64,000 nucleotides of DNA. Source: Actinomycetota bacterium (GTDB lineage Bacteria > Actinomycetota > UBA4738 > HRBIN12). How positions within the stretch are numbered: position 1 is the first letter of the stretch; every line of letters begins with the position of its first letter. The translations under genes were made by a program, and so were the position numbers. This document shows positions 24,939-57,384 of this stretch, piece after piece. Under the pieces are notes generated by a model. That model had not been told where the DNA came from and did no database searches. It was given only the letters and a program-made list of their open reading frames with translations. The stretch spans positions 27,933 to 91,932 of the forward strand of contig JBBEAY010000017.1 of NCBI GenBank assembly GCA_040882605.1, in the 5' to 3' direction.

Positions 24939-25048
24939 TCGGCTCGAACGCCGCCGACGGCTTGGGTCCTGCAGTTGCTAGCATCGCGCCCACCCACCGC
25001 GTCGACACGACGACTGAGGACACGACGACAGAGAGAAGAGGGATATCC

Positions 25049-36236: not shown

Positions 36237-36258
36237 AGGAAGCGACGGGGATCGAAGC

Positions 36259-38772: not shown

Positions 38773-38823
38773 AATGCCAGAAGATCTGGACAGATCTGAA
38801 CAGAAGGTGTGGGGGGAGGCGAC

Positions 38824-39522: not shown

Positions 39523-39543
39523 TGCTCCAGGAAGGTGCCGACC

Positions 39544-39873
39544 ATGGCTGAGCTGACGGTGATCAGGTGGCGGGACGTCCCGATGCAAGTGCTCGCGCGC
39601 GGCGCGGGAGGCGAGAGCGCGCGGGCGCTGCTTCCAGATCGGTTCCAGGAAGCGGTCGACGCCGCAGCCATGGTCGCCGGCCTGATCGGGTCCGATGACT
39701 ACACGGAGCAGATGCGCATGGACTCCCGGGAGTGCGGTGACGACTTGCAGCACGAGGTCGACACCGAGACCGTGACGATCCTCTCGGAGTGGGATGAGCA
39801 GGTGCTGCGCGAGACGATCCGCTCGGGCGGCGTCAGGGGCGGCGACCCGATCGCAGGCGGCGGCGGGCGGTAG
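39544..39873 (+). CDS. Small conserved hypothetical protein between the corrinoid protein and the pterin-binding methyltransferase
   Basis: About 110 aa, acidic, with a Gly-rich tail. It is spaced tightly on both sides (about 20 nt and 4 nt), so it is probably co-transcribed. No motif recognised. Confidence 0.5.
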   Translation: MAELTVIRWRDVPMQVLARGAGGESARALLPDRFQEAVDAAAMVAGLIGSDDYTEQMRMDSRECGDDLQHEVDTETVTILSEWDEQVLRETIRSGGVRGGDPIAGGGGR

Positions 39874-39877
39874 ATCT

Positions 39878-40861
39878 ATGGCTGACACCGTCGTGAGCTC
39901 GGCGACCCGCGAGGTCGTGATCGGCACGGGCCGTCCGTTCGTGATCATCGGTGAGCGCATCAACCCCACTGGGCGCAAGAAGCTCGCCGAGGAGATGAAG
40001 GCCGGTGACTTCACGACCGTGATCGCCGACACGCAGGCCCAAGTTGCCGCCGGGGCGCACATGCTCGACGTGAACGCCGGCATCCCGCTCGCCGACGAGC
40101 CGACGATCCTCGCCGAGACGGTGAAGCTCGTGCAGTCGCTCACCGACGTGCCGCTCTCGATCGATTCCTCGATCGTCGCCGCGTTGGAGGCCGGCCTCGC
40201 CGTGTATCAGGGCAAGCCACTCGTGAACTCCGTGACTGGCGAAGACGATCGCATCGAGACCGTGCTGCCGCTCGTCGCGAAGCACGGCGCGGCGGTCGTC
40301 GCGATCACCAACGACGAGACCGGCATCAGCGAGGACCCCGACGTGCGGTTCGCGGTGGCCGAGAAGATCGTGCGCGCGGCCGCCGACCACGGTATCGCCC
40401 CGCACGACATCGTCGTCGATCCGCTCGTGATGCCCGTGGGCGCCATGGGCACGGCCGGCCGGCAGGTCTTCGCCCTCGTGCGGCGACTGCACGACGAGCT
40501 CGGTGTCAACACGACGTGCGGCGCCTCCAACGTCTCGTTCGGGTTGCCGAACCGCAACGGGCTGAACGGCGCTTTCCTCGCGATGGCGATCGCCAACGGC
40601 ATGACGAGCGCGATCACCAGTCCGCTGCACGAGGAGGTGCGACAGGCCGTGATGGCCGCCGACGTGCTGATGGGCGCCGACGCGCACGCGGCCTCCTGGA
40701 TCCGACGCTACGGCGAGGGGCGGAGCCAGGGCGACGCCGCCACGGGGGGCAGGCGCGGAGGCCGCGCCGGGCGTCGGACGAGCGTCGAGCCGAGCGAGGG
40801 CGCAGCCTCGCCGGCCGAGCCGCCGGCCGAGCCGCCGGCCGAGGCGGCGCCAGAAACGTGA
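39878..40861 (+). CDS. Methyltetrahydrofolate:corrinoid methyltransferase (pterin-binding domain; MtgA/MetH-pterin-domain-like)
   Basis: A TIM-barrel pterin-binding pattern of the MetH/AcsE/MtrH type: PFVIIGERINPTGRKK, LDVNAG, SIDSS, NSV, CGASNVSFGLP. Confidence 0.75.
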   Translation: MADTVVSSATREVVIGTGRPFVIIGERINPTGRKKLAEEMKAGDFTTVIADTQAQVAAGAHMLDVNAGIPLADEPTILAETVKLVQSLTDVPLSIDSSIVAALEAGLAVYQGKPLVNSVTGEDDRIETVLPLVAKHGAAVVAITNDETGISEDPDVRFAVAEKIVRAAADHGIAPHDIVVDPLVMPVGAMGTAGRQVFALVRRLHDELGVNTTCGASNVSFGLPNRNGLNGAFLAMAIANGMTSAITSPLHEEVRQAVMAADVLMGADAHAASWIRRYGEGRSQGDAATGGRRGGRAGRRTSVEPSEGAASPAEPPAEPPAEAAPET

Positions 40862-42882: not shown

Positions 42883-44438
42883 GCGACGAGTCAGCCACGC
42901 AGGATGCGCCCCGGCGACGTCGCACCGGTGGCCGGGAAGGACGTGCCGCCGCGCGCCTCGCCACCGTTGCCGAGAAGGTTCCGTTCATCACACGGGAGCT
43001 GACCCCGTTCGAGGTGTTGAGCGAGGAAGGTCTTGCGACGATCGAGCACAACGCCGACACGATCCTCGAACAGGTCGGCATCGACTTCCGCGAGGCACCT
43101 GATGCCCTGGAGCTGCTGAAGGGAGCGGGGTGCGACATCGATGGCGAGCGTGCGCGGTTCCCCCGCGGACTGGCGCGCCAGCTCGTGCAGGCCACCGCGC
43201 CGCGTGAGTTCGACCAGGTTGCAAGGAACCCCGCCAACAACGTGCACATCGGGGGCGCCGCCACCGTGCTCGCGCCGGCGTACGGTTCGCCGTTCGTGAG
43301 GGACCTCGACGGAGGACGGCGCTACGGCACGATCGAAGACTTCCGCAACTTCGTGAAGCTCGCGTACTCGACCCCCTACCTGCACCATTCGGGTGGCACG
43401 GTGTGCGAGCCGGTCGACCTGCCGGTCAACAAGCGGCATTACGACATGGTCTACGCGCACATGCGCTACTCCGACAAGGCATTCATGGGTTCGGTCACGC
43501 ATCCGCAGCGCGCGCAGGACACGGTCGAGATGGCGCGCATCCTGTTCGGCGCCGACGCGCTCGAGGCGCAGCCGCACGTGCTGAGCCTGATCAACGCGAA
43601 CTCGCCGCTCGTGTGGGACACGATCATGCTCGGCGCCGCGAAGGCCTATGCCGAGGCGAACCAGGCGGTGATCATGACGCCGTTCATCTTGGCGGGGGCG
43701 ATGAGTCCCGCGACGGCGGCGGGCGCGGCGACCCAGACGCTCGCTGAGGCGCTTGCGGGCATGGCGTACGTGCAGTTGGTGCGCCCCGGCGCTCCTGTCG
43801 TCTTCGGCTCGTTCGCCTCGTCGATGTCGATGCAGTCGGGAGCGCCGACGTTCGGAACGCCGGAGCCGGCCCTCGTGCTCTACGCGCTCGCTGCGTGCGC
43901 ACGGCGGCTCGGTGTGCCGTTCCGAAGCGGGGGCTCGCTCACCGCGTCGAAGGTCGCCGACGCGCAGGCGGCGTACGAGTCGGCGAACACGCTGCAGCCG
44001 ACCATGCTCGCCGGCGTGAACTTCGTGCTGCACGCCGCGGGCTGGCTCGAGGGCGGTCTCGCGATGGGCTACGAGAAGTTCGTGCTCGACCTCGACCAAT
44101 GCGGACAGATGCACGCGTTCGCCAAAGGCATGGACCTCTCGCCCAACGGCCAGGCGCTCGACGCGATCATCGAGAACGGTCCCGGTCAGCACTTCCTCGG
44201 CACAGCGCACACGCTCGCGAACTTCGAGACCGCCTTCTACCGATCCGAGATCGCCGACAACAACTCGTTCGAACAATGGGAGATCGAAGGCTCGCTCGAC
44301 GCAGCGATGCGCGCCAACGCCGTGTGGAAGCGGATGCTCGCCGAGTACGAGACGCCGCGTATCGACGAGGCCAAGGACGAGGAGCTCCGAGAGTGGATCG
44401 AGAAGAAGAAGGCGAGCTTCCCGGACTCGAACGTCTGA
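42879..44438 (+). CDS. MttB-superfamily (trimethylamine methyltransferase family) substrate:corrinoid methyltransferase without pyrrolysine; candidate glycine betaine methyltransferase (MtgB-like)
   Basis: 519-aa uninterrupted ORF with no in-frame amber codon. It has the length and TIM-barrel pattern of the COG5598 MttB family. The context (betaine importer, dimethylglycine oxidase, corrinoid protein, MtgA, RamA) points to a quaternary-amine substrate. Confidence 0.72.
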   Translation: MSDESATQDAPRRRRTGGREGRAAARLATVAEKVPFITRELTPFEVLSEEGLATIEHNADTILEQVGIDFREAPDALELLKGAGCDIDGERARFPRGLARQLVQATAPREFDQVARNPANNVHIGGAATVLAPAYGSPFVRDLDGGRRYGTIEDFRNFVKLAYSTPYLHHSGGTVCEPVDLPVNKRHYDMVYAHMRYSDKAFMGSVTHPQRAQDTVEMARILFGADALEAQPHVLSLINANSPLVWDTIMLGAAKAYAEANQAVIMTPFILAGAMSPATAAGAATQTLAEALAGMAYVQLVRPGAPVVFGSFASSMSMQSGAPTFGTPEPALVLYALAACARRLGVPFRSGGSLTASKVADAQAAYESANTLQPTMLAGVNFVLHAAGWLEGGLAMGYEKFVLDLDQCGQMHAFAKGMDLSPNGQALDAIIENGPGQHFLGTAHTLANFETAFYRSEIADNNSFEQWEIEGSLDAAMRANAVWKRMLAEYETPRIDEAKDEELREWIEKKKASFPDSNV

Positions 44439-44520
44439 CCCGGGGTCCGGCTTCGGTTCACGATCAGGCAGGCCGATACGCCATCATGATGCGCGGCCGC
44501 GGCAAGGAAGGCGGAACGAG

Positions 44521-45405
44521 GTGGCGTTGAGGATCGGCAAACGGCGAACGTCGGTGCTCCCCGAGGAACAGCGCGTCGCGTTGCGCGCGCTCCTTGAGCG
44601 GCCGAAGTTCGAGCTGATCCCGTTGAAGAACGCACGGGAGGCGGCAGAAGCGCTGCCGGTGGGCGCGATGGTCACGGTCACGGCCTCGCCGAGCCACGGC
44701 ATCGAGTCGACTATCGAGCTCGCTGAGCAGATGGTTGCGGCCGGTCACGATGCGGTGCCGCACCTATCCGCGCACATGATCCGCGACCGGGCGCACCTGG
44801 GCGAGCTGCTCGATCGGTGCCGGGGGGCCGGCTTGCGTGAAGCGTTCGTGGTGGGAGGTGATGCCAAGGAACCGGGAGAGTTCCACGACGGACTCACCCT
44901 GCTTCGTGCGATGCACGAGCTCGGCCACCCGTTCGAGACGGTCGGAGCGCCAGGCTACCCCGAGGGTCACCCCGGCATCAGCCGTGAGCGTCTGCTCGAG
45001 GTGCTGCTCGACAAGCAGGCCTACGTGTCGTACATGGCCACGCAGATGTGCTTCGATCCCGATGCGATCGTCGGCTGGATAGCCGAGATGCGCCGTCAGG
45101 GCGTGACGCTCGCCGTGCACCTGGGAACGCCCGGGGTCGCCGACATGGCGAAGCTCATCACTATCAGCGCGCGCATCGGCATCGCCGACAGCGCCCGCTA
45201 CCTCAAGAAGAACAAGCGCATGGTTGGACACTTGCTCACCCCCGGGAAGTTCGGGCCAGACGCTCTACTCGAAGGAGTGGCGCCGGCGCTCGCCGACCCG
45301 AGCGCGAAGATCGAAGCGGTGCACCTGTTCACGTTCAACCAGGTGAGTGCGACCGTCGAGTGGCAGCAGCGGATGCTCGCCGCGCTCGACGAAGCGTCGG
45401 AATGA
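44521..45405 (+). CDS. metF: 5,10-methylenetetrahydrofolate reductase (MetF family)
   Basis: GTG start after AAGGAAGG. MetF TIM-barrel pattern (FELIPL...VTASP...HLSAHMIRD...FVVGGD...GAPGYPEGHP...HLFTFN). Confidence 0.8.
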   Translation: MALRIGKRRTSVLPEEQRVALRALLERPKFELIPLKNAREAAEALPVGAMVTVTASPSHGIESTIELAEQMVAAGHDAVPHLSAHMIRDRAHLGELLDRCRGAGLREAFVVGGDAKEPGEFHDGLTLLRAMHELGHPFETVGAPGYPEGHPGISRERLLEVLLDKQAYVSYMATQMCFDPDAIVGWIAEMRRQGVTLAVHLGTPGVADMAKLITISARIGIADSARYLKKNKRMVGHLLTPGKFGPDALLEGVAPALADPSAKIEAVHLFTFNQVSATVEWQQRMLAALDEASE

Positions 45406-45833
45406 GTCGGGCCTTGGCGTCTCCGAGGGGTTCGGTGTCTGGCGGACATCTGCGTGGCCCATTTTCGAGTTTGGGCGTGACGGGCACACCTTCTCCATGG
45501 CGGAGATCCCGTTGGTGCTCGGGCTCTGTTTCGTGGCGCCGGCCAGGGTCGCCGCCGCGCAGCTCGCCGCCGCCGCGCTGATCGTGATCGGCGGCAGCAC
45601 TCCTTGGGGCTTGACCCAGACGCGGCCGTGCAGAGGTCACTGCCCTGGAACCTCGGGTCACGTTCTCGGCGTGTGCACGCCTATCCTCCATGGCAGACTG
45701 CGCTTCCGGTCAACGTGAACGGGGGTCATTCCGTGGAGCAGCGATACGACATCGTCGTGATGGGGGACGGGCACGGTCTCTCGTCGCGCCGCGTGTTAGG
45801 CGATCTGAACAAGGGACCTCACTAGCCGTGGCG

Positions 45834-46082
45834 ATGCACGTTCCATGCGGCCACTGCGGCCGGCGGCCGTTCACGGAGTTCTCGTTCGGCGGTGAGTGGC
45901 GAGAGATCGACGCCCCCGACGCCGAGTCGGACTTCGTACGCGTCTACCTGCCCGAGAACCCGGAAGGCCCGCAGCGCGAACGATGGTTCCACGCCATGGG
46001 TTGCCGCACCTGGACGACCGTGTTGCGCGACACGCGCACGAACCAGATCGAGCGCGACACGCGCACGAACGAGATCGGCTGA
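45834..46082 (+). CDS. soxD: Sarcosine oxidase delta subunit
   Basis: MHVPCGHCGRRPFTEFSFGGE matches the Cys-pair N-terminus of SoxD and is paralogous to 53613-53900. The 3' end contains an in-frame 27-bp tandem duplication (RDTRTNQIE/RDTRTNEIG). A GTG start 6 nt upstream is also possible. Confidence 0.8.
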   Translation: MHVPCGHCGRRPFTEFSFGGEWREIDAPDAESDFVRVYLPENPEGPQRERWFHAMGCRTWTTVLRDTRTNQIERDTRTNEIG

Positions 46083-46086
46083 CCAG

Positions 46087-48681
46087 ATGGGCTCGCTCGA
46101 GTTCGAGGGTCGGGGGGTGCCGTTCAAGTCCGGCGACACGGTCGCGTCGGCGCTGTACCGAGACGGATTGCGCACGTTCTCGCGCTCGCTGAAGTACCAC
46201 CGGCGCCGTGGCCTCTACTGCGGCACCGGCGACTGCCCGAATTGCCTGATGACGGTCGACGGGTTGCCCGCGATGCGCACCTGCACCACGCGATGCGACG
46301 AGGGTATGCGCGTCGAGCGTGCAGGCGGATGGCCGAACGCCGACCTCGATCTGTTGCACGTCACCGACTCGCTGCACCGTGTGATGCCGGTTGGCTTCTA
46401 CTACAAGACCTTTATCAAGCCCCGGTTCGCGTGGTCGGTCGCTGAGCGCGTGATCCGGCGTGCGACCGGGCTCGGAAGGCTGCCCCCAACCACGGCCGCG
46501 GCGAGAGAGATCGTCCGTCACGAGCACGTCGACGTTGTGGTGATCGGGGCGGGCATCGCTGGCTTGGAAGCTGCGCGCGACGCTGCGGCGGGCGGTTCGG
46601 TGCTCGTGTGCGACGAGGGCCGGATCGGCCACGCCGTCGCGCCCGGGCCGACGCTCGATCGGCTCCAGGCGCTCGAAGCCGAAGTACGCGCACTCGATGC
46701 GGTGACCGTGCTCGAGACCCATACCGCGCTCGGTGTGTACGAGGGCTTGCACGTGCCCCTCGCCGGGGACGGAGATCTCGTGCACGTGCATCCGTCGCGG
46801 GTGATCGTGGCGACCGGAGCCACCGAAGCGCACGCTGTGTTCCCCGGCAACGACCTGCCGGGAGTGATGCTCGGGCGGGCGGCGGCCGCGCTCGCGGGAG
46901 TGCACGGCGTGCGCCCCGGCAGGCGGGCCGTCGTTGCCGTGCGCACCGAGGAGGGCCTGCAACACCTCCAGACTGTGCTCGACTCCGGGGTCGAAGTGAT
47001 AGCCACGGCCGTATCAGGGGCGATGGCGGACCGGCTTCCCGACGCGGGCTTGGGAGAGGTCGTGGTCGACGGCGAGGTGCATGAGGCGCGCGGCGGCTCA
47101 TCGCTGCGCTCGGTCGTGCTGCGCCGAGACGGCCGGGCCAAGCGGTTCGACTGCGACCTGCTCGTGCTCTCCCTCGGCCTCTCGCCGCGCGACGGGCTCG
47201 CGCGCATGGCCCTGCCCGGCGAGGCCGTGACCGTTGTGGGCGATGCGGCGGCTGAGCCGCCGGCCGAGGCGTGCGGCCATGACGGCATCGTGTGCTTGTG
47301 CGAGGACGTCTCGACGCACGACCTCGAACAGGCCTGGGACGAGGGCTTCCGCAACTCCGAGATCTTGAAGCGATACACGACGACGACGATGGGCCCGTGC
47401 CAGGGCGCGATGTGCGGTCGGGCGCTGTCGTGTTTCGCGGTGTCGCGCGGCGACGTCGGGCATCGAGCCGACGCCCCGCAGGCTCCTCGCACAACCGCCA
47501 GGCCGCCGACGAGACCGGTCACGCTTGAGTCGCTCGCCGCCGGGGTGCACGAGATCGTCGACAAGCGGACGTCACTGCACGAGTTGCACGTGGCCGCCGG
47601 TGCGAAGCTCGATCGTTCGGGGGGATGGCTGCGACCGTTCAACTACGGCGACTGGCGCGAGGAATACCTGGCCGTGCGCGAGCGAGTGAGCCTCATGGAC
47701 GTGGGCACGCTCGGCAAATTCACGCTGGGCGGCGCCGACGCCGACGCGAGTGAGCTCATCGATCGTCTGTTCCCGTGCCGCGTCGCCGACCTCGCGCCGG
47801 GGCGCACGCGCTACGTGCTGAGCCTCGACGAGGCCGGCTACGTGATGGACGACGGACTCCTCGTCCGCGTTGGTGAGCACGAGTGGTACCTCACCTCGAC
47901 GTCGGGCGGGGCCGGCCGCACCGACGCCCGTCTGCGCAACTTCATCGACCGCTTCGACCTTGACGTGCACGTGCTCGACCGCACGGCGCAGTGGGGCGCG
48001 ATCAACGTCGCGGGCCCGTACTCCCGCGACTTGCTCGAGCGGCTCACCGACGACCCGATCGACGCCGAGGCCATGCCCTTCCCGGGGTTCACCGACGCGA
48101 CGGTGGCCGGCGTGGCGTGCCGCGTGATCCGCACGGGGTTCGTGGGGGAGCTCGCGTTCGAGCTGCACCACCCGCGCTCGCGCGGGCCGGAGCTCTGGCA
48201 GGCGCTCGTCGAAGCCGGCCGCGAGTGGCACCTCGTGCCGCACGGCCTTGACGCGCTCGAGCTGCTGCGGCTCGAGAAGGGGCACGTCTATCTCGGGCAG
48301 GACACGATGCCCGACGACACACCGGCGAAGCTTGACATGTCGTGGGCGGTCGACATGAGCAAGCCATGGTTCGTCGGCAAGATGGCCCTCGAACGCATGG
48401 CCACGCTTGGGTTGGCGCGTCGACACGTGGGCCTCGAGCTCACCGGCGGGCCGGCTGACACCGCCGAGCTGCGGGGCGAGCCGTTGCTGGTCGGCGGCGA
48501 CGTCGTCGGTCGGGTTACATCGGCAGAGCACTCGATCGCGCTCGGCCGTGCGATCGGGCTCGGATGGATCCGCTCGGTCGACGACGGCTTCCCCGAAGAG
48601 CTCGTGACCGGATCGGGGGCGGTCGCAACCGTCGTGCCGACACCCTTCTACGATCCGGGAGGAGGCAGGATGCGTGGCTGA
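46087..48681 (+). CDS. soxA: Sarcosine oxidase alpha subunit
   Basis: 864 aa from Met66 of the track ORF. N-terminal Cys-rich domain (CGTGDCPNC), NAD/FAD Rossmann motifs (VVVIGAGIAGLEAA), and a C-terminal GcvT-like folate-binding domain. Confidence 0.85.
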   Translation: MGSLEFEGRGVPFKSGDTVASALYRDGLRTFSRSLKYHRRRGLYCGTGDCPNCLMTVDGLPAMRTCTTRCDEGMRVERAGGWPNADLDLLHVTDSLHRVMPVGFYYKTFIKPRFAWSVAERVIRRATGLGRLPPTTAAAREIVRHEHVDVVVIGAGIAGLEAARDAAAGGSVLVCDEGRIGHAVAPGPTLDRLQALEAEVRALDAVTVLETHTALGVYEGLHVPLAGDGDLVHVHPSRVIVATGATEAHAVFPGNDLPGVMLGRAAAALAGVHGVRPGRRAVVAVRTEEGLQHLQTVLDSGVEVIATAVSGAMADRLPDAGLGEVVVDGEVHEARGGSSLRSVVLRRDGRAKRFDCDLLVLSLGLSPRDGLARMALPGEAVTVVGDAAAEPPAEACGHDGIVCLCEDVSTHDLEQAWDEGFRNSEILKRYTTTTMGPCQGAMCGRALSCFAVSRGDVGHRADAPQAPRTTARPPTRPVTLESLAAGVHEIVDKRTSLHELHVAAGAKLDRSGGWLRPFNYGDWREEYLAVRERVSLMDVGTLGKFTLGGADADASELIDRLFPCRVADLAPGRTRYVLSLDEAGYVMDDGLLVRVGEHEWYLTSTSGGAGRTDARLRNFIDRFDLDVHVLDRTAQWGAINVAGPYSRDLLERLTDDPIDAEAMPFPGFTDATVAGVACRVIRTGFVGELAFELHHPRSRGPELWQALVEAGREWHLVPHGLDALELLRLEKGHVYLGQDTMPDDTPAKLDMSWAVDMSKPWFVGKMALERMATLGLARRHVGLELTGGPADTAELRGEPLLVGGDVVGRVTSAEHSIALGRAIGLGWIRSVDDGFPEELVTGSGAVATVVPTPFYDPGGGRMRG

Positions 48682-49108
48682 GCTGCGCCCGACCTCGTCG
48701 CCCGTCGTCGTCGTCGTGCTCGCGTCGAGCGAGGCATGCGATCGAATCGTCGCGCCCGAAGGCGCGATCGCCATGCGCATCGCGCCCCGCGAGATGCTCC
48801 TCGTCGGTTCGGCCGACGCCGGCGCCGAAGTCTTGCGCGGCGCCCTCGACGAGCCGAGCGCTATCGTCGACGACGTTACCGACGGGTGGGCCATGTTCCA
48901 GCTCACCGGTGACGACGCTCGAGAGGCTTTCGCGCGCGTGTGCGAGCTCGAGCTTCCCGATGGCGGATGGGTGCAGGGCGAGGTTGCTCGCGCGGGCGCC
49001 AAGGTGATCGTGGAACCAGGCGGTCTCACGATCCTCGTTCCGGCGATGCTCGGTGCTCACGTCGAGGAGCGGATCCGTGCCGACGCCGCGGAGCTGCTCG
49101 CGCCATGA
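48674..49108 (+). CDS. soxG: Sarcosine oxidase gamma subunit
   Basis: 144 aa. Its position between soxA and soxB and its size fit SoxG. GTG start overlaps the soxA end. Confidence 0.65.
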   Translation: MAELRPTSSPVVVVVLASSEACDRIVAPEGAIAMRIAPREMLLVGSADAGAEVLRGALDEPSAIVDDVTDGWAMFQLTGDDAREAFARVCELELPDGGWVQGEVARAGAKVIVEPGGLTILVPAMLGAHVEERIRADAAELLAP

Positions 49109-50316
49109 CGGGTCTGTTCAAGCACCGGGAGTTCCTGTCCCAGCGCGACCTCAAAGCGCGCTACGACGTCGTGATCGTCGGCGGCGGCGTCAACGGGCTC
49201 TCGCTCGCCTTCCACCTCGCCGAGTACCACGGCATACGCGATGTGGCGGTGCTCGAGCGTTCCTACATCGGAAGCGGCGGAAGCGGCCGCAACACGCAGG
49301 TCCTGCGCGCCACCTACAACACGACCGAGACGGTGCCGCTGTACGCGACGAGCCTCGGCATGTACCGGACCCTCAGCCAGGAGCTCGACTACAACGTGCT
49401 GTTCAGCACGCAGGGCAACCTCGATCTCTGCCACTCGATCGACACGTTGCAGGTGGAGCGCGAGAAGGTGCTGATCCATCGTCAGTACGGCGTGGACACC
49501 GAGATGCTCACGCCCCAGCAGGTGCTCGAGGTGTGCCCGCTCGTCGATCTCACGGCCGGAGGCGAGCTTCCGGTCATCGGCGCGAGCTATCACCCTCCGG
49601 GCGCGTTCGCGCGCCACGACTCGGTGGTGTGGGGCTACGCGAGCGCCGCGGACCGCCGGGGGGTCGAGATCCATCAGGGCGTCGAGGTCGTGGGTGTCGA
49701 TGTCGTCGACGGTGAGTGCCGCGGCGTCGCGACGACCCGTGGGCCGGTGGCCGCAGGCCGGGTCGTGAGCGCAGTGGCCGGATGGTCGAGCGTGCTCGCG
49801 CGCCTGGCGGGGGTGAGGCTTCCGATCGAGACGATGGCGCTGCAGGCGTTCGTGACCGAGGCGTACACGCCGGTGCTGTGGGGTCTGGTCTCGTCGATGG
49901 ATCTCTACGTGTACACGCAACAAACCGCGCGCGGCGAGCTCGTGGTCGGGGCGGAGACGCTTCCCTACAACACCTACTCGACGCGCTCGACGTTCGAGTT
50001 CGCAGCGGAAGCCGCGAAGCGCACGATCCAGTTGTTGCCGTTCATGGCGAAGGCCCGGCTGATGCGTCAATGGACCGGCCTCTGCGACATGACCCCCGAC
50101 TCGTCGCCGCTGTTGGGGGAATCAGAAGTGCGGAACTTCTTCCTGATGTCGGGCATGGGCACGTGGGGGTTCAAGGGAGCGCCGATCTTCGGAAGAACGA
50201 TGGCCGAGATGCTCGCGACAGGCAGGGTCGATCCGCTGATCGCGCCGTTCGCTCCGGACCGGTTCCGCAACGATCGCATGGTGCCCGACGCCGCGAGCGC
50301 CGGCACCCACCGCTAG
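49105..50316 (+). CDS. soxB: Sarcosine oxidase beta subunit
   Basis: FAD motif YDVVIVGGGVNGLSLAFHL and the monomeric-sarcosine-oxidase-like fold of SoxB. ATGA overlap with soxG. Confidence 0.85.
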   Translation: MTGLFKHREFLSQRDLKARYDVVIVGGGVNGLSLAFHLAEYHGIRDVAVLERSYIGSGGSGRNTQVLRATYNTTETVPLYATSLGMYRTLSQELDYNVLFSTQGNLDLCHSIDTLQVEREKVLIHRQYGVDTEMLTPQQVLEVCPLVDLTAGGELPVIGASYHPPGAFARHDSVVWGYASAADRRGVEIHQGVEVVGVDVVDGECRGVATTRGPVAAGRVVSAVAGWSSVLARLAGVRLPIETMALQAFVTEAYTPVLWGLVSSMDLYVYTQQTARGELVVGAETLPYNTYSTRSTFEFAAEAAKRTIQLLPFMAKARLMRQWTGLCDMTPDSSPLLGESEVRNFFLMSGMGTWGFKGAPIFGRTMAEMLATGRVDPLIAPFAPDRFRNDRMVPDAASAGTHR

Positions 50317-50327
50317 TCCAGTCCAGA

Positions 50328-50909
50328 CTAGATGGTCGCGAGCACGCGGTCGATCAGGTAGTTCGCGAACGACGGACGTACGAGCACCCTCGTCGTGTGG
50401 GTGCGCTCGAGCAGGATGACCTGGGTTCTCGCGAAGAGCGTCTGTGCGCACATGCCCGCGCGCCACGAGGCCGGGTACAGGTCGATGGGACAGCCACTCG
50501 CGAGCAGCTCGTGACGATCCGGGCCACCCAGCTCGATCGCGACCCGGTTCGCGCTGACCTCGATCACTGAGCGGTGCAGGCTCGCTTCTTGATCCTTGGC
50601 GAGCGCGGTCTCGAGCTCCTCCACGATCTCGGGGCCGGTGTGCGGAGGGCCGAGCACCAGCCACTCATCTGGGCCGAGCCAGAGCACGGCGCGTGGCCCG
50701 GCTTCCGATGCGGTGTTGGGCTCGAGGGGAAGCGGGTACGGTGTGCGGCCGGCCAGCGAGGGGTCGAGTCGAAGCGAGACCTGTGCGAGGAACGGCATGT
50801 GCTCGAGGGTGACGCGACCGGCAGTGCGCTGGCTCGCCCGCGCGAGCTCGGCTGCGCTTGAGGCGAGCGGATCGCGCGCGTAGGACTCAGCCGTCACGGC
50901 GCGCTCCAT
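50328..50909 (-). CDS. soxG: Sarcosine oxidase gamma subunit (second copy)
   Basis: 193-aa ORF downstream of the second soxA. It overlaps the end of soxA by about 20 nt, so the true start is probably an internal GTG. The gamma-subunit call is supported mainly by size and position. Confidence 0.65.
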   Translation of the reverse strand: MERAVTAESYARDPLASSAAELARASQRTAGRVTLEHMPFLAQVSLRLDPSLAGRTPYPLPLEPNTASEAGPRAVLWLGPDEWLVLGPPHTGPEIVEELETALAKDQEASLHRSVIEVSANRVAIELGGPDRHELLASGCPIDLYPASWRAGMCAQTLFARTQVILLERTHTTRVLVRPSFANYLIDRVLATI

Positions 50910-53616
50910 CTTGATCGTAGAAGACGGGTGCGGTTACCTCGGCTTCGATAGGACCGTCGAGCGTAGGGGCTACGACGTGTCCACCGATGCGCTCGCGCCC
51001 AGCCGTGACCATGGCGAGCGCGAAGGTGCGACCGAGCTCCGGGCTCCGGTAGCTCGACGTGACGTGGCCGAGCATCGGCACGGGCGGCGCGGTGTCGGCG
51101 TGCTCGGGCGAGACCACCTGGGAGCCCTCGGGCAACCATCGGTCGGGGTCGACCGGCAACAAACCGACGAGCTGCTTGCGGTCGGGCCGCACCGTGTCAG
51201 GCCGGCGGAGCGAGCGCTTGCCGATGAAGTCGGAATCGTCCTTGCGCACTATCCACGACATGCCGAGGTCGTGCGGCGTAACGGTGCCGTCGGTGTCCTG
51301 CCCGACGATCACGAAGCCCTTCTCCGCGCGCAACACGTGCATCGACTCGGTTCCGTACGGCGTGAGTCCGAGGGGCGCGCCGGCGGCGAGCACGGCTTCC
51401 CACATCGCGGTTCCGTGATGGCCTGCGACGTTGATCTCGTAGGCGAGCTCACCGCTGAAGCTCACACGCGCGACTCGGGCCGGCATGCTCGCGACCTCAC
51501 CCTCGCGCCACGTCATGAATGGGAACGCCGCCGCGTCGAGTCCGATGTCGGTGCCGGCCGCGGTGAGCACCTCGCGCGCCTTCGGTCCGTTGACGGCGAT
51601 CGTCGCCCACTGCTCGGTCACGCTCGTCGCGTACACCCGCAGATCGGGCCACTCCGTCTGCAGCCATTCCTCCACGTGGTCCATAACTTTGGCGGCCCCG
51701 CCGGTCGTGGTCGTGATCAGGAAGCGGTCCTCGGCCAGGCGCATCGCGACGCCGTCGTCGAAGACCATGCCGTCGAGACCGAGCATGAGGCCGTAGCGGA
51801 TCGAGCCCACCGCGAGCGTCGACATGCGGTTCGTGTAGAGCCGGTCGAGGAACGTCGCCGCGTCGGGGCCGACCAGCTCGATCTTGCCGAGCGTGGAAGC
51901 GTCCATCACCCCGGCCGCGCGGCGCACGGCGAGGCACTCTCGCTCGACCGCGCTGTGCAGCGGCTCGACACCTTCCGGGAAGTACCAGGGGCGCTTCCAC
52001 TGGCCGACGTTCTCGAAGACGGCTCCCCGTTCGACGTGCAGATCGTGCATCGGGGTCGTGCGGATCGGATCGAGCAGCACCGGTCCGCGGTCGACGCCGG
52101 CGAGCACCGAGTAGGGGACCGGCGTGTACGGGGGCCGGCTGTTCGTGGGGCCCTGTGCCCCGGGCCCCTCGCCCCACGCCTGGTTCACGATGGCCGTGGT
52201 GAGTGCGCCGCTCGTGCGGCCTTGGTCGATCGCGGTGCCGATGTACGTCGCGCGCTTCACGTGCTCCGTCGAGCGGAGCTCGTGGCCGACCGCGTCGAGC
52301 ACGTCGGCGACGGTCGAGTCGCGCTGCAGATCGACGAAGTGCTCCGAGAGGTCGTCCGCGGGCGTGTACCAATAGGGAACGCTCGACGGCACCTCACCGG
52401 CCGCCGCGCCGACGACCGTGAGCCATGACGGGCCGCGGCCACCGGAAGGGCCGCCGGGCCGGGCGTTCGGGGCGTCAGGCACGAAGCAGGTGCGGTCGTC
52501 GTCCCATCGCAGACCGCCGCCGATGCCTCGCCAGAGCTGCGCTGTCGGGTTCCAGCCCCCGGAGACGAGCACCAGATCAGCATCGAAGGTCTCGGTCGCA
52601 CCGCCGGGCCCCGCGATCGTGACCGAACGGACACCCTGATCACCGTCGGCGGCCACCACGGCGCACGCAGTGCGCACATCGATGCCGACGGCTCGAGCGG
52701 CGTCGGTAGCTTTGCCGCCTTCCCCCGGGTCGACGATCGTGGCGATCTCGAGTCCCTTGGCTGTGAGCGCCGTCGCCGCCTCGTGCCCGGCGTGGTTCGT
52801 GCTGAACACGACGGCGCGCTCGCCCGCCAGCACGCCGAAGCGATCGGCGAATAGGAGCGCGGCCGAGGCGAGCATCACGCCGGGCAGGTCGTTGCGGGCG
52901 AACGCGATCGGGCGCTCATGCGCGCCGCTCGCGAGCACGACTCGCCCCGCACGCACATGGTGCACACGCTCGATCGGAGTCGACCGTTCGTACACCACGA
53001 TGTATCCGTCGTCGTAGACGCCGAGCGCGGTGGCGTCGGTGAGCACCGTGACCTCCGAAGCCGATGCGAGGGCGCCGCTGGTCGTCGCGATCCACCCCAG
53101 CGCCGGCTCGCCGTCGACCTCGTCACCGCTCGTGGCTGTGCCGCCCGTCCACGACCGCTCGTCGACGAGCATCACGCGGTCTCCCGCCTGTGCGGCTTCG
53201 AACGCAGCTCGCAGCCCCGCCACGCCGGCCCCGATCACGAGCGTCTCGACGTGCGCGTGCCGATGCCGTGCGGCAGGCGCGCCCGTGTCACCGGGGGGCA
53301 GACGCCCAACGCCAGGCCGGGGCATCGCGACCAACCCGTCGACGAGCGGCACCCCCGTCGCCGGCACGATCGGCCGGAACACGGGCGCCGACAGCTCGAC
53401 GAACGCGTTCGGTTCCTCGACGCCGGCCGCGAACACGCCGCGTGGCCGGCTTCGCAGAGGCGAGCGGGCGACCACATGGACGCCGTTCGCGATCAGCGCG
53501 CTCGCAAGCGTGTCGCCCGCGAAGCCCTCGCACGATCGGCCGTCGAACGTGAAGGCGAGCGGGCGCGACCGGTCGATGCCGTGCCCGGCCGGCGCGGCGA
53601 GCCGCCGCCCCGTCAC
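50887..53616 (-). CDS. soxA: Sarcosine oxidase alpha subunit (second copy)
   Basis: 909 aa. Rossmann motifs (LVIGAGVAGLRAA) and a C-terminal GcvT-like domain. ATGA overlap with the upstream soxD. Confidence 0.85.
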   Translation of the reverse strand: MTGRRLAAPAGHGIDRSRPLAFTFDGRSCEGFAGDTLASALIANGVHVVARSPLRSRPRGVFAAGVEEPNAFVELSAPVFRPIVPATGVPLVDGLVAMPRPGVGRLPPGDTGAPAARHRHAHVETLVIGAGVAGLRAAFEAAQAGDRVMLVDERSWTGGTATSGDEVDGEPALGWIATTSGALASASEVTVLTDATALGVYDDGYIVVYERSTPIERVHHVRAGRVVLASGAHERPIAFARNDLPGVMLASAALLFADRFGVLAGERAVVFSTNHAGHEAATALTAKGLEIATIVDPGEGGKATDAARAVGIDVRTACAVVAADGDQGVRSVTIAGPGGATETFDADLVLVSGGWNPTAQLWRGIGGGLRWDDDRTCFVPDAPNARPGGPSGGRGPSWLTVVGAAAGEVPSSVPYWYTPADDLSEHFVDLQRDSTVADVLDAVGHELRSTEHVKRATYIGTAIDQGRTSGALTTAIVNQAWGEGPGAQGPTNSRPPYTPVPYSVLAGVDRGPVLLDPIRTTPMHDLHVERGAVFENVGQWKRPWYFPEGVEPLHSAVERECLAVRRAAGVMDASTLGKIELVGPDAATFLDRLYTNRMSTLAVGSIRYGLMLGLDGMVFDDGVAMRLAEDRFLITTTTGGAAKVMDHVEEWLQTEWPDLRVYATSVTEQWATIAVNGPKAREVLTAAGTDIGLDAAAFPFMTWREGEVASMPARVARVSFSGELAYEINVAGHHGTAMWEAVLAAGAPLGLTPYGTESMHVLRAEKGFVIVGQDTDGTVTPHDLGMSWIVRKDDSDFIGKRSLRRPDTVRPDRKQLVGLLPVDPDRWLPEGSQVVSPEHADTAPPVPMLGHVTSSYRSPELGRTFALAMVTAGRERIGGHVVAPTLDGPIEAEVTAPVFYDQDGARRDG

Positions 53617-53900
53617 CGAGCCGAGCCTTCCGGGGGCGGTTCCTCGCCCACCCGGTAGGAGGCGCCGATCTCATTGGTCGCCGTGTTCCGTGTGAGGTTG
53701 AACCAGCGGCGGCAGCCGGCAGTGTGCATCCATCGTTCGGACCACCATCCGCGCGGGTTGTCGCGCATGAACAGGTAGTCGGCCCACTCCTCGTCGGAGA
53801 GCGACTCGGGGTCCGAAGGGTAGGCGATGTGGGCTTGGCCACCGTAGCGGAACTCGATCTCATCGCGTGGTCCGCACCACGGGCAGGGGATCAAGAGCAT
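53613..53900 (-). CDS. soxD: Sarcosine oxidase delta subunit (second copy)
   Basis: MLLIPCPWCGPRDEIEFRYGG is the canonical SoxD N-terminus. Confidence 0.85.
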   Translation of the reverse strand: MLLIPCPWCGPRDEIEFRYGGQAHIAYPSDPESLSDEEWADYLFMRDNPRGWWSERWMHTAGCRRWFNLTRNTATNEIGASYRVGEEPPPEGSAR

Positions 53901-53904
53901 GCGG

Positions 53905-54230
53905 TCACCGCCGTCCTTCGTCGAACGACGCGACCAGGAGCTTCGGGGCGGTCATGCGCCAAGCCTCGACGATCAGCTCGCGCACCTCGCCGCTGTCGAC
54001 CTTCGACAGCACAGCCCCAACCCAACCGCTCGGGCCGACATAGGCGGCGCGAACCACGCATCGGCGTCCATCGCGATGAGAGCCCGCTGCTCGTCGTGTA
54101 CCGACTTGATCCACGCCCGCCGCTCGTGCTCGCTGAATGTCATGAACATCTTGTCCCGCACGCGGAACGTCGCCGTCTCCCAGGTCTCGCGCTCTTCCGC
54201 CTCAGGAAGCGAGAGGGCGAACGCGCGCAC
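53905..54230 (-). pseudogene. MmcQ/YjbR-family (DUF419) gene split by an apparent frameshift, lying between soxB and soxD
   Basis: The N-terminal half (ALSLPEAEERETWETATFRVRDKMFMTF...DAWFAPP) and the C-terminal half (YVGPSGWVGAVL...ELIVEAWRMTAPKKL) of a YjbR-like protein lie in two different reading frames, joined near 54060. This is either a real frameshift or a sequencing indel. Confidence 0.5.
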
Positions 54231-54261
54231 GGTCGACGCTCGGATGCCCACGCCCGCATCC

Positions 54262-55461
54262 TCAGTGCGCGACGGCGGCCGCGCCGTGCTCGTCGATGAG
54301 GGCGCCGGTCGTGAAGCGGGCGAGCGAGAATGGCCTCGCGAGGGGACCCGGCTCACCGTTCGCGATCGTCTCGGCGTAAATCCAACCGGAGCCCGGCGTT
54401 CCCTTGAACCCGCCGGTGCCCCATCCGCAATTGATGAACAACCCATCGATCGGAGTCCGGTCGACGATCGGTGAGGCGTCGGGGCAGACATCGACGATGC
54501 CGCCCCACGTTCGGAGCACCGAGGCGTGGGCGAACATCGGGAACAGCTCGAGCGCCGCAGCCATCTGGTGCTCGATCACGTGGAACGATCCGCGCTGGCC
54601 GTAGCCGATGTAGGCGTCGATGCCGGCGCCCATGACGAGCTCGCCCTTGTCGGCCTGCGACACGTACACGTGCACTGCGTTCGACATGACCACGCAGTCG
54701 AGCACCGGCTCGTACAGGGCGCTCACGAGCGCCTGCAACGGATGCGACTGCACCGGGAGCCGCAACCCGACCATCGACGCGAGCACACTCGTGTGCCCGG
54801 CGGCGGCGAGCGCGACCTTCCCGGCGCGGATCGTGCCGCGCGAGGTCTCGACGCCTTCCACTCGGCCGCCGGCGCCCCGCACGAACCCCGTTACCTCGGC
54901 GTGTTCGACGATGTCGACGCCGAGGCGGTCGGCGCCGCGCGCATACCCCCACGCCACCTTGTCGTGGCGGGCGACGCCGCCGCGACGCTGCAACGTTCCC
55001 CCGAGCACCGGGTAGCGCACGTCGGGCGAGGTATTCACGACGGGCGCGAACGCTTTCACACCGTCGGCGTCGAGCCATTCCGCGTCGACGCTGTTCAGCC
55101 GGTTCGCCTCGACCCGTCGCATGCTCGACCGAACGTCGCCGAGGTCGTGCGCCAGGTTCAGCACGCCGCGCTGGCTGAACTGCATGTCGAAGCCGAGCGT
55201 CTCCTCGAGCGCTTCCCAGAGCTTCAGGGAATGCTCGTAGATCTCGGCCGACTCGTCCCATAGGTAGTTCGACCGGATGATCGTGGTGTTCCGCGCCATG
55301 TTGCCGCCGCCGAGCCAGCCCTTCTCGACCACGCAGACGTCGGTGATGCCGTGGTGTGCGGCCAGGTAGTAGGCGGTGGCCAGCCCGTGACCCCCTGCGC
55401 CGACGATGACGACGTCGTAGGCCGGCTTCGGTTCCGCGGTACGCCAATAGCGCTCAGCCAT
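54262..55461 (-). CDS. soxB: Sarcosine oxidase beta subunit (second copy)
   Basis: Trimmed to Met131 (MAERYW...). FAD motif [19 protein letters not shown]. About 50% identical by eye to the soxB on the + strand. Confidence 0.85.
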
Positions 55462-55510: not shown

Positions 55511-55546
55511 CGCACACGGTTGCGCACGAGATCGGAGCGTTGCGGC

Positions 55547-56338
55547 ATGCGAGACGACAAAGAGAGCAGCGGGAACCTCCAGTCGGTGCGCCGGGCGATC
55601 CGCGCGCTCGAGCTGATCAGTGAGCACGGCGAACTCGGCGTGACTGAGCTCGGCCGCAAGCTCGAGGTGCACAAGGCGACCGCTTCACGGCTGATGACGA
55701 CGCTCGCCGAACGCGGGTTCGTTGAGCGCGATCCGATCTCGGAGAAGTTCCGGCTCGGGTTCGGATTGATCTCGCTCGCCGGTGCGGCCGTCGGCGGCAA
55801 CGATCTCGTGCGCGCGGCGCGCCCGATCCTCGACGATCTCGCGGAGCGCACACGCGAGACGGTGAACCTCGGCGTGCTCTCGGGGGAGTCGGTCGTCTAC
55901 GTCGATCAAGTCACCGGGACGTGTTCGATCGTGAGCGTGAGCTGGGTCGGACAGCGCACGCCGTTGCACTGCACCTCGAACGGCAAGGTGCTGCTGGCGT
56001 TCGCCACCGAGGCCGAGCGCGATCGTCTGCTGCGGGGGCCGCTTCCACGGCTCACCCCACGCACCATCACCGACGTGCGGAAGCTTCGCACGCAGCTCTC
56101 GGAGATCCGAACCCGCGGCTACGCCCAGACGCTGGAAGAGCTCGAGAAGGGATTGAACGCCGTGGCAGCGCCCGTGCGCGGCATGAGCGGCGACCTCGTC
56201 GCTGCGCTCAGCGTGTCGGGGCCGGCCTTCCGCATGCGAGCGGTGGACCTTCCTCGTTTCGGAAGGTTCGCGGCTGACTCGGCGCTCGCCATATCGAGGC
56301 GGCTCGGCTACGTCGACCGGGGTGTGCGGGCGGTATGA
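55547..56338 (+). CDS. IclR family transcriptional regulator (second)
   Basis: wHTH ([43 protein letters not shown]) plus an IclR effector domain. Divergent from the second sox operon. Confidence 0.85.
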
Positions 56339-57384
56339 GCGCGTCGCCGATCGCGTGGGACGCTCAGCGCGCCGAGATTCCGACCTTGCTCGACGCGATC
56401 GGCCGGACCCCGCTGGTGCGTTTGCAACGTGTAGCGCCTCCCGGCGTGGAGGTGTTCGCCAAGGTGGAGTGGTACGGCCCGACGGGATCGGTGAAGGACC
56501 GCATCTACGCCGCGATGCTCGCAAGAGCCGAGGAGCGCGGAGACCTCAAGCCCGGCATGACGATCATCGAGTGCACGACCGGCAACGCCGGGATCGCGTG
56601 CTCGGCGGTCGCGGCGATCAAGGGCTACCGGTGCACGATCGTGATGCCCGAGGGCATGAGCAACGAGCGCAAGACGATGATCAGGGCCTACGGCGCTGAC
56701 CTCGTGCTCACGCCCGGCGCCGGCACCGATATCGACCTGGCGCTCGCGAAGATGCGCGAGATCGTGGCCGCCGACCCCGACAGGTATTTCTTCCCGGGGG
56801 AGTTCGAGAACCCCGACAACCCCGAGGCGCAGCTCGCGAGCGGCGAGGAGATCTGGGAGCAGACCGGTGGTCGCGTCGACGCGGTCGTCGGCGCCCAGGG
56901 CACGGGCGGATGGATCAGCGGGGTCGCACACGCGCTCAAGGCTCGCAACCCGTCGGTGCTCGCCTTCGCGGTCGAGCCGGCCGAATGTCCGCTGATCACC
57001 GATCACACCTGGGGCACCCACGGCGTGCCCGGCATCGCCGATGGCATCGTGCCGGCGAACCTCGATCTCGCCGCGATGGACGGCATCGTCACAGTCTCCA
57101 CCGAGGAAGCGCTCGTGACCGCGCGGCGTCTCGCGCGCGAGGAAGGACTCTTGTGCGGCCCCTCGTCGGGCATCAACGTGGCGGCCGTGCACAAGGTGAT
57201 CGATCATCATCCGGAGCTACACCGCGTCGTGACCGCGATCTGCGATACCGGACAGCGTTACCTGTCGGGTGAGCTCTACGGCGAGAAGCTCGAGGTCGAA
57301 GAACCCGAGCGCGACCACACGCTCGACCCCGACACCGTCACGGCGATCGAGGCACATCGCGACCGCCTCGAGTTCATCTCGTAG
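56335..57384 (+). CDS. PLP-dependent cysteine synthase family enzyme (CysK/CysM-like)
   Basis: PLP-lysine motif GSVKDR, glycine-rich loop GTGGWISG, and the IECTTGNAGIA block. ATGA overlap with the IclR stop, so the two are translationally coupled. Confidence 0.78.
   Translation: MSASPIAWDAQRAEIPTLLDAIGRTPLVRLQRVAPPGVEVFAKVEWYGPTGSVKDRIYAAMLARAEERGDLKPGMTIIECTTGNAGIACSAVAAIKGYRCTIVMPEGMSNERKTMIRAYGADLVLTPGAGTDIDLALAKMREIVAADPDRYFFPGEFENPDNPEAQLASGEEIWEQTGGRVDAVVGAQGTGGWISGVAHALKARNPSVLAFAVEPAECPLITDHTWGTHGVPGIADGIVPANLDLAAMDGIVTVSTEEALVTARRLAREEGLLCGPSSGINVAAVHKVIDHHPELHRVVTAICDTGQRYLSGELYGEKLEVEEPERDHTLDPDTVTAIEAHRDRLEFIS

Follow-up and report, generated by a model that had tools for sequence, protein, structure and literature searches.

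The current analysis describes, in a 64-kb window of Actinomycetota bacterium DNA (assembly GCA_040882605.1, contig JBBEAY010000017.1, positions 27,933 to 91,932; about 68% GC), two complete paralogous four-subunit sets of sarcosine oxidase-type genes that converge upon one another. By its sequence, the minus-strand set is a canonical sarcosine oxidase (SoxBDAG), whereas the plus-strand set, termed Sox' hereafter, represents a separate, widespread, and uncharacterised branch of the heterotetrameric sarcosine oxidase (TSOX) superfamily whose alpha subunit carries eight invariant cysteines. These cysteines predict two [2Fe-2S] clusters, and on balance Sox' is probably an iron-sulfur (Fe-S) type, folate-linked N-demethylating dehydrogenase working beside an ordinary sarcosine oxidase, with neither set redundant. 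A listing of open reading frames (ORFs), combined with Pfam and NCBIfam scans, places the eight sox-type genes, all of them uninterrupted, and the features lying between them as follows (positions are those of the window; lengths are in nucleotides, nt, or amino acids, aa):

45828-46082, plus strand: delta', SoxD family, zinc ribbon (Pfam SoxD E 6.5e-18)
46087-48681, plus strand: alpha', 864 aa (Fer2_4, Pyr_redox_2, SO_alpha_A3/Fer2_BFD, GCV_T, GCV_T_C)
48674-49108, plus strand: gamma', 144 aa, predicted truncated SoxG fold (structure match, weak BLASTP match)
49105-50316, plus strand: beta', 403 aa, DAO-fold subunit for flavin adenine dinucleotide (FAD) (DAO E 1.5e-63)
50317-50327, no strand: tail-to-tail junction, 11 nt, TCCAGTCCAGA, between the beta' stop TAG and the gamma stop CTA
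50328-50909, minus strand: canonical gamma (SoxG), 193 aa (Pfam SoxG E 3e-13; TIGR01375 87 bits against a cutoff of 144)
50887-53616, minus strand: canonical alpha (SoxA), 909 aa (TIGR01372 1011 bits against a cutoff of 1164)
53613-53900, minus strand: canonical delta (SoxD), 95 aa (Pfam SoxD E 2.9e-38; TIGR01374 128.7 against a cutoff of 116.5)
53905-54251, minus strand: YjbR-like gene between soxB and soxD (Pfam YjbR match to profile positions 1-53 of 88)
54262-55461, minus strand: canonical beta (SoxB), 399 aa (TIGR01373 623 against a cutoff of 529; DAO E 1.7e-65)

This layout agrees with an earlier sequence-only reading of the same DNA, which had described two complete convergent sets, ordered delta'-alpha'-gamma'-beta' (D-A-G-B) on the plus strand and beta-(YjbR-like)-delta-alpha-gamma on the minus strand. 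The ORFs of the minus-strand set overlap or abut. The reading had also correctly placed the ends of the two sets about 11 nt apart, the stop codons lying at 50314-50316 and 50328-50330, and had rightly noted that both alpha subunits, at 864 and 909 aa, are short; the solved TSOX alpha chains have 964-965 aa. What it missed was the feature truly separating the two sets, namely the eight cysteines, as well as the glycine betaine context of the locus.

The cysteines of alpha' are arranged as a Fer2_4 motif, C45-x4-C50-x2-C53-x12-C66, and a BFD-like motif, C403-x-C405-x32-C438-x4-C443, and both domains score above their Pfam cutoffs (Fer2_4 E 8e-23; Fer2_BFD 32.6 bits against a cutoff of 26). All eight are invariant in 75/75 full-length alpha' orthologues, which range from 46 to 100% identity. 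The canonical alpha has a Fer2_4 match and no BFD match, and the residues occupying its eight corresponding columns are AEATDQDS; canonical alphas show these or similar residues there. Likewise, the eight cysteines were not found in two proteobacterial Sox-like alphas from operons of B-D-A-G order (Mesorhizobium and Ruegeria, both from a plasmid collection) or in MgdC of Paraburkholderia caribensis, the alpha of a classical N-methylglutamate dehydrogenase cluster. The Mesorhizobium and Ruegeria proteins are still named "2Fe-2S iron-sulfur cluster-binding protein" by NCBI; the exact NCBI match of alpha' is entered as [quoted passage not shown] (MAG, metagenome-assembled genome). When the N-terminal half of alpha' was used in an exhaustive search, 582 cluster representatives (50%-identity clusters) were recovered at E <= 1e-30. 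Among the top 150 representatives were 55 full-length proteins, 22 of which contain all eight cysteines and three a partial set, with the rest having none. The 22 are 31-60% identical to alpha' and 810-990 aa in length, and the named examples are all metagenomic. It is difficult to explain these residues without a ligand role, because they persist unchanged in several phyla while identity drops from 100% to about 31%. Our search of the literature found no mention of Fe-S clusters in heterotetrameric sarcosine oxidase.

The distribution of Sox' is broad. The database holds 3523 alpha' homologues at E <= 1e-20, and relatives of alpha' are encoded by 504 species-level genomes; all locus-level counts given here refer to the best 80 alpha'-clade loci of these 504 genomes, 46 of which have at least 6 kb of flanking sequence on both sides (long-flank loci). 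The best 80 carriers are almost all uncultured Actinomycetota from soil (one is a named Gaiella sp.), while Gemmatimonadota (Gemmatimonadales), Chloroflexota, and Acidobacteriota carriers appear at 47-51% alpha' identity. When the window proteins were mapped onto these loci, the D-A-G-B order was found in 65/66 complete loci across four phyla, and it recurs in more distant relatives with eight cysteines. The sequence-only reading had taken this order to be a local shuffle of a duplicated operon, a view that does not survive the comparison: since D-A-G-B is shared across the clade, it is a family trait and not a rearrangement within this genome. Nor is it unusual to find duplicated Sox operons, as had been proposed, because several Sox-like operons per genome are common and one Ruegeria plasmid has seven alpha-like places. 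We also considered whether eight cysteines always accompany D-A-G-B, and this can be dismissed, as the eight-cysteine clades L090 and L091 (individual loci are cited by such handles) are arranged B-D-A-G. Cultured carriers were sought in the plasmid collection, where no alpha' match exceeds 35% identity and all three inspected operons are B-D-A-G. Only the closest relatives (alpha' identity of at least 68%) retain the convergent canonical set along with the betaine genes upstream, and near distant members neither canonical sox nor betaine genes are found.

At the level of individual subunits, Sox' combines familiar folds with consistent departures. From its N- to its C-terminus, alpha' consists of a Fer2_4 domain, a Rossmann GxGxxG motif, a BFD-like/A3 domain, and a GcvT-type folate domain resembling T-protein (GCV_T E 3.6e-64; GCV_T_C E 1.6e-12; fold match to 1wos, TMt 0.91). 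Its AlphaFold2 model best matches the TSOX alpha chains 1vrq_A and 2gag_A over the whole length (E about 1e-65) and, more weakly, the archaeal proline dehydrogenase alpha 1y56_A (E 4e-24). The beta' protein, which from its sequence would be the subunit carrying out amine oxidation, scores 324 bits to TSOX beta 1vrq_B, and its residues R64, N65, T66, Y272, and K359 are conserved. Its His171 aligns with His173 of 2gag_B, which we take to be the covalent site of flavin mononucleotide (FMN); in each of the two clades this position is conserved to 90% or more. Consistent differences between beta' and canonical beta are seen at 45 positions, which are fixed within each clade. In delta', the called ORF spans 45834-46082, with the GTG at 45828 a more likely start judging from orthologues, and the zinc ligands C5, C8, H53, and C57 are kept in 74-75 of 75 sequences; they align with C6, C9, H59, and C63 of canonical delta and thus reproduce its Cys3His zinc site. 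The 3' end of the delta' gene also contains an in-frame 27-nt tandem duplication (46025-46077, two copies, 96% match), through which the C-terminus of the protein repeats RDTRTNxIx; the duplication is not present in L006.

The gamma' subunit is the least recognizable of the four. It has no Pfam or NCBIfam match, its BLASTP similarity to canonical gamma is 28% identity over 79 aa (E 4e-4), and its profile HMM (hidden Markov model) retrieves just a marginal T-protein match from PDB sequences (E 0.075). However, an AlphaFold model built from a 40-sequence alignment has a pLDDT (predicted local distance difference test) of 92.5, and its top Foldseek matches are the TSOX gamma chains 2gag_C and 1vrq_C (E 1.5e-9 and 2.7e-9; TM 0.77-0.79). 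Because the best structural matches are the gamma chains of two solved sarcosine oxidases, the model identifies gamma' as a shortened SoxG. Between the gamma' start and the alpha' stop there is an overlap of 8 nt, which recurs in nearly all loci checked. When scored with the curated NCBIfam Sox models, all plus-strand proteins fall far below the cutoffs (beta' 388 against 529, alpha' 509 against 1164, delta' 59 against 116.5, and gamma' without a match).

In relation to known systems, Sox' most obviously parallels TSOX, as represented by the enzymes of Corynebacterium sp. U-96 and Stenotrophomonas maltophilia (PDB 1x31/1vrq and 2gag). The same four folds are found in Sox', which retains the FMN-binding histidine in beta, the Cys3His zinc site in delta, and the GcvT folate domain in alpha. 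By the content and order of its genes, the minus-strand set is fully a TSOX. Sox', by comparison, lacks the soxBDAG gene order and has an alpha that is about 100 aa shorter than TSOX alphas and contains eight invariant cysteines that they do not have, so that an alpha free of Fe-S ligands is missing as well; its gamma' is about 50 aa shorter and goes unrecognised by SoxG models, and the four NCBIfam models all remain below their cutoffs. TSOX is reportedly a diflavin zinc enzyme that reduces O2 and has no Fe-S clusters. A second parallel is MgdABCD, a TSOX homologue that acts as a dehydrogenase on an N-methyl amino acid, as Sox' may do. The classical proteobacterial cluster (L089, Paraburkholderia caribensis) is nonetheless organised beta-delta-alpha-gamma-gmaS-mgsABC and has a cysteine-less alpha, whereas gmaS/mgsABC homologues were not found within 10 kb of any of the 80 alpha'-clade loci. 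The third parallel is with the HcnABC, opine (OoxAB), D-hydroxyproline, and archaeal L-proline dehydrogenases, which share a DAO-type FAD subunit with Sox'. All of these enzymes also contain the other building blocks found in alpha', namely a Pyr_redox-type component with the BFD-like C-x-C...C-x4-C motif and a Fer2_4 [2Fe-2S] module, but there the modules are distributed over separate subunits, three in the Hcn, opine, and D-hydroxyproline enzymes, and a GcvT folate domain, SoxD, and SoxG are all missing. In alpha', they are fused to GcvT, and SoxD- and SoxG-type genes are present. From its sequence, alpha' looks like a fusion still carrying ligands that canonical SoxA has lost. The Hcn, opine, D-hydroxyproline, and proline enzymes work as dehydrogenases and are not known to use O2, and the known enzyme of the N-methylglutamate pathway is likewise a dehydrogenase. 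It is by analogy with these enzymes that we suggest a dehydrogenase chemistry for Sox'. What is new would seem to be a variant, in Fe-S ligands and gene order, within a known kind of enzyme.

The two sets are old paralogues, both of which are maintained. The sequence-only reading had named a simple recent duplication as the outcome that inactivating lesions in one copy, or identical kinetics and expression of both, would point to. Pairwise identities between the sets are just 39% for beta, 31% for alpha, 36% for delta, and about 28% for gamma, each set is closer to its orthologues in other genomes than to its neighbour, and no inactivating lesion was found in any of the eight sox-type genes. 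In comparisons with three related genomes, the ratio of nonsynonymous to synonymous substitution rates (dN/dS) is 0.05-0.34 on the plus strand and 0.04-0.35 on the minus strand. Purifying selection acts on the two sets with similar strength, and neither is decaying. A recent duplication of the sox operon in this genome, followed by local reordering, has in its favour the adjacent and convergent placement of the sets, yet identities of 28-39%, a gene order and cysteine motifs common to relatives in four phyla, and the closer orthologues elsewhere leave it with a negligible probability, and we consider it ruled out by the identities and by the order conserved in other phyla. It is very unlikely that the two sets are redundant copies. 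They possibly handle different N-methyl amino acids, as the earlier reading had proposed, with no specific support for N-methylproline, one of its suggested substrates.

Within the canonical set, beta and delta exceed the curated NCBIfam cutoffs and alpha and gamma fall below theirs. Around residues 98-105 of the alpha, some 45 aa (GWPS...MPVGFYYKTF...IRR) are missing that alpha' and the proteobacterial Sox-like alphas possess, which explains much of its shortness in comparison to the 965-aa solved proteins. The YjbR-like gene, which the earlier reading had included in the operon order, is actually frameshifted. A 1-nt deletion lies near 54041 (window CCGCCTATGTCGG, L006 CCTCCGTACGTCGG), the frames switch at FAPP/YVGPSG, and nine relatives have an intact ORF of 115 aa. 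The site is not in a long homopolymer, and the lesion could be either a true pseudogene or an assembly error. Lesions at the locus are confined to accessory genes, these being the frameshifted yjbR-like gene and a deleted CrtI-like gene upstream of Sox'.

Between the two sets, TCCAGTCCAGA and both stop codons together form the 6-nt inverted repeat CTAGTC/GACTAG that the sequence-only reading had pointed out. As a conserved bidirectional terminator, this repeat can be rejected, because it is not conserved in relatives and a terminator-like site, when sought at the junction, was not found. The corresponding junctions of relatives measure -4, 4, 11, or 122 nt, or else 1.2-3.3 kb with inserted genes. 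Junction length is thus widely variable among relatives, and inserted genes are frequent. In the 122-nt junction of the closest relative, L001 (14210-14331), a 20-nt palindrome, TGATACCGAtTTCGGTATCA, occurs twice and resembles an operator or small repeat element. Junctions of 1.2-3.3 kb, with an extra gene of about 545 aa between the sets, are found in L006 (14249-15886) and also in L002, L007, L008, L020, and L040.

The surroundings of the sox-type genes provide the metabolic setting. The following genes lie upstream of Sox' or flank the canonical set:

36235-38772, plus strand: dimethylglycine (DMG) oxidase orthologue of the Arthrobacter type (736 bits to 1pj5)
38800-39522, plus strand: MtgC-like corrinoid protein (Pfam/NCBIfam)
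39523-39873, plus strand: PF13769 ("Virulence factor") protein, between the corrinoid protein and methyltransferase genes
39875-40861, plus strand: methyl-tetrahydrofolate (THF):corrinoid methyltransferase, MtgD type (Pfam/NCBIfam)
40870-42882, plus strand: RACo/RamA-type activase (Pfam/NCBIfam)
42879-44438, plus strand: MtgB-type methyltransferase of the MttB family (PF06253 type; 705 bits to 4yyc and 404 to MtgB structures 2qne and 9yce)
44521-45405, plus strand: MetF2-like reductase (Pfam/NCBIfam)
55520-56338, plus strand: IclR-family regulator, divergent from canonical soxB (Pfam IclR_C E 1.6e-47)
56335-57384, plus strand: pyridoxal phosphate-dependent (PALP) dehydratase-type gene following the IclR gene (PALP E 4e-75)

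Aerobic glycine betaine demethylation by MtgB-MtgC-MtgD together with MetF2 and RamA has been described in Ruegeria pomeroyi (PMC12478193). The window genes at 38800-45405 encode the full MtgBCD/MetF2/RamA component set of that pathway, for which reason the metabolic setting is predicted to be glycine betaine demethylation, although the substrate assignment is made from sequence. In distinction to the Ruegeria system, the version in the window is actinobacterial, forms one operon-like block, and has the PF13769 protein instead of a DUF1638 protein; the PF13769 protein keeps its position in relatives at 70-94% identity. Also upstream and co-oriented with Sox' are an Opu/Cho-type ABC transporter and an IclR regulator, which accompany the betaine genes, while the IclR and PALP genes listed above adjoin soxB in close relatives too. 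Further amine-catabolism genes lie farther upstream (12165-13616, 15630-17006, and 19148-25888), including a DAO-type oxidase, polyamine-type transporters represented by two PotD-like binding proteins with ABC components, and a PF01593 amine oxidase (23679-24938), which places the sox genes within a larger amine-utilisation region.

Immediately ahead of Sox' are two further features:

45652-45728, plus strand: three conserved blocks of sequence (ACC..GGTCAC / GTGGCAGACT / TGAACGGGGGTCA) preceding the leading gene of the Sox' operon
45690-45827, plus strand: remnant of a CrtI/amine-oxidase-like FAD oxidoreductase (tblastn and DNA comparison with L006, whose intact gene encodes 558 aa)

The blocks precede either the CrtI-like gene or delta' in 14 loci, down to 56% alpha' identity (for example, L006 8060-8136, L014 9662-9745, and L050 about 8000-8078), and their sequence suggests that they are probably a promoter or operator plus a ribosome-binding site for an unnamed regulator. 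An RNA element was rejected here, given that RNAalifold detected no covariation and a consensus energy of just -2 kcal/mol and Rfam had no match to the element; there was no Rfam match anywhere in the window. What remains of the gene is a frameshifted 5' stretch of about 35 codons and a 3' stretch of about 15, with roughly 1.5 kb deleted internally. The intact protein has a PF01593 domain and is a distant relative of CrtO/CrtI. Its gene is directly upstream of delta' in 23/80 loci and present somewhere in 34/80, and it is the commonest neighbour in the 46 long-flank loci (directly upstream of delta' in 14 and anywhere in 23). It is intact in L002, L003, L006, and L007 and absent from L012, L014, and L040. 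Both L001 and L004 keep remnants, and the different remnant sizes suggest that the gene has been lost repeatedly.

When examining the wider contexts of these systems, it is evident that the Fe-S type is broad, that its order is usually but not always D-A-G-B, and that it recurs near one-carbon and corrinoid systems. Genes of the MttB family are found within 10 kb in 11 of the 46 long-flank loci, namely 8/11 close relatives and 3/35 distant ones. The distant MttB proteins (L034, L035, and L044, plus L063 and L071 with short flanks) are 28-40% identical to that of the window and are differently arranged. At some loci, Sox' adjoins Opp-type (Opp/SBP_bac_5) transporters, and at others a module of agmatinase-like, two CrtI-like, GcvT, and phosphodiesterase-like genes. 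Among the eight-cysteine clades, L084 and L086 reside in N-methylglutamate clusters with gmaS/mgsABC, in D-A-G-B or D-A-G order, in Chloroflexota and other MAGs, and L092, with a partial set of cysteines, follows an mgsB-like gene. L091 (2035-14928), which has all eight, is an MTTB / CN-hydrolase / B-D-A-G / MTHFR / RACo / corrinoid-protein cluster, and L087, L088, and L090 are eight-cysteine clades in unrelated settings. On a Ruegeria plasmid, an MttB-family gene adjoins a cysteine-less Sox-like operon (L082, 13302-14840). L091 and L082 come from unrelated lineages, and corrinoid and flavin N-demethylases may thus be paired more generally.

Based upon these features, a division of labour can be proposed. 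The MtgB/MtgC/MtgD system, together with RamA and MetF2, would take the first methyl group of betaine and DMG oxidase the second, while the minus-strand set would convert sarcosine to glycine and 5,10-methylene-THF as the last demethylation of the upstream pathway. In Sox', beta' would oxidise an N-methyl amine at its FAD and electrons would move to FMN bound at His171, from where they would pass through the two predicted [2Fe-2S] clusters of alpha' to an acceptor other than oxygen, so that the complex would act as a dehydrogenase. Carbon from the methyl group would be trapped on tetrahydrofolate by the GcvT domain of alpha', and the zinc-ribbon delta' and the shortened gamma' presumably have structural roles. 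Betaine-derived DMG or sarcosine is the likeliest substrate in this genome; another N-alkyl amine is possible, and N-methylglutamate is unlikely. With DMG or sarcosine, Sox' would give an oxygen-independent, energy-conserving alternative to both oxidases, and its location downstream of the MtgB cluster, in the same orientation, supports the proposal.

Several observations weigh against this assignment. Cluster binding is predicted from motifs. The steps from betaine through DMG and sarcosine to glycine are fully covered without Sox', as the DMG oxidase orthologue and the canonical Sox already account for both steps, leaving Sox' surplus for betaine. Outside the closest relatives, the MttB association is confined to the 3/35 long-flank loci mentioned above, and the commonest partner of Sox' is the CrtI-like flavoprotein, which the window has deleted. 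Extra genes part metF2 from the Sox' operon in relatives, and the operon, having its own conserved upstream element, is probably a separate transcription unit. Lastly, the Opp-type transporters and the agmatinase/GcvT/phosphodiesterase-like modules point to other substrates elsewhere. Taken in this direction, Sox' would act with a CrtI-like partner upon a different, imported N-alkyl amine or amino acid, its betaine neighbourhood would be incidental, and the pathway might be altered or orphaned in this genome. The frequent CrtI-like neighbour, the transporters and modules, the remnants kept by the window, L001, and L004, and the operon's own upstream element are all consistent with such a role. 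Even so, Sox' is still under purifying selection where the CrtI-like gene has been lost (dN/dS of 0.05-0.34 against L001 and L004), L012, L014, and L040 keep a Sox' that evidently works without it, and independent clades repeatedly adjoin MttB/corrinoid systems. We judge this explanation to be rather unlikely.

It is slightly less probable again that Sox' is simply a second sarcosine oxidase isozyme that shares the substrate of the first and uses O2 as its acceptor, perhaps with other kinetics or regulation, the cysteines being a structural or evolutionary relic that binds nothing or just a stabilising metal. Such an isozyme would account for alpha', beta', and gamma' each having a TSOX chain as its nearest solved structure, for the conservation of the FMN histidine, the zinc ligands, the folate domain, and many residues of the beta active-site region, and for the tail-to-tail placement beside soxBDAG inside a betaine island. 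It is harder to reconcile with eight cysteines in two classical [2Fe-2S] motifs that are invariant to about 31% identity across several phyla, with the 45 consistent differences between beta' and canonical beta, with NCBIfam scores far below the cutoffs for all four Sox models, and with distant clade members that have no canonical sox or betaine genes nearby. There is a small chance that Sox' is an N-methylglutamate dehydrogenase, a Gram-positive-type MgdABCD serving methylamine utilisation. TSOX and N-methylglutamate dehydrogenase operons are often confused by automatic annotation (PMC13236597), and distant Fe-S-type alphas do occur in gmaS/mgsABC clusters (L084 and L086) or downstream of an mgsB-like gene (L092). 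However, tblastn with gmaS and mgsA/B/C of L084 found no match in the 64-kb window or within 10 kb of any of the 80 alpha'-clade loci, alpha' is just 33-44% identical to the alpha of the L084 cluster, and gamma' is about 90 aa shorter than the gammas of gmaS/mgsABC clusters. For the alpha' clade, we set this candidate aside on account of the absence of gmaS/mgsABC nearby. An Fe-S-type dehydrogenase alongside a canonical oxidase is the interpretation that we favour.

Beyond this genome, we tentatively suggest, as an idea that may well prove too broad, that SoxA-like proteins with eight cysteines constitute an unrecognised group of folate-linked Fe-S N-demethylating dehydrogenases, widespread in uncultured soil Actinomycetota, Chloroflexota, Gemmatimonadota, and Acidobacteriota, which would deliver electrons from FAD and FMN, by way of two [2Fe-2S] clusters, to the respiratory chain and not to O2, act upon clade-specific substrates (N-methylglutamate or the products of MttB demethylation), and represent an ancestral link between HcnABC/opine-type enzymes and a TSOX that lost its clusters. 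In evolutionary terms, the class provides a testable intermediate between Fe-S flavoenzymes of the HcnABC/opine type and TSOX. It also yields a rule for annotation, as eight cysteines, often with D-A-G-B order, separate it from the soxBDAG and mgdABCD operons examined, which are B-D-A-G and cysteine-less. Both types are neighbours within a single pathway island of the window, which makes it convenient for direct comparison. Similarity is the routine basis for annotating Sox-type operons, which are then regarded as O2-dependent oxidases. Should the Fe-S type be a dehydrogenase, the demethylation of N-methyl compounds in soil, those derived from betaine included, need not use O2 or release H2O2 and could feed respiration, and the reading of these abundant genes in metagenomes would change.

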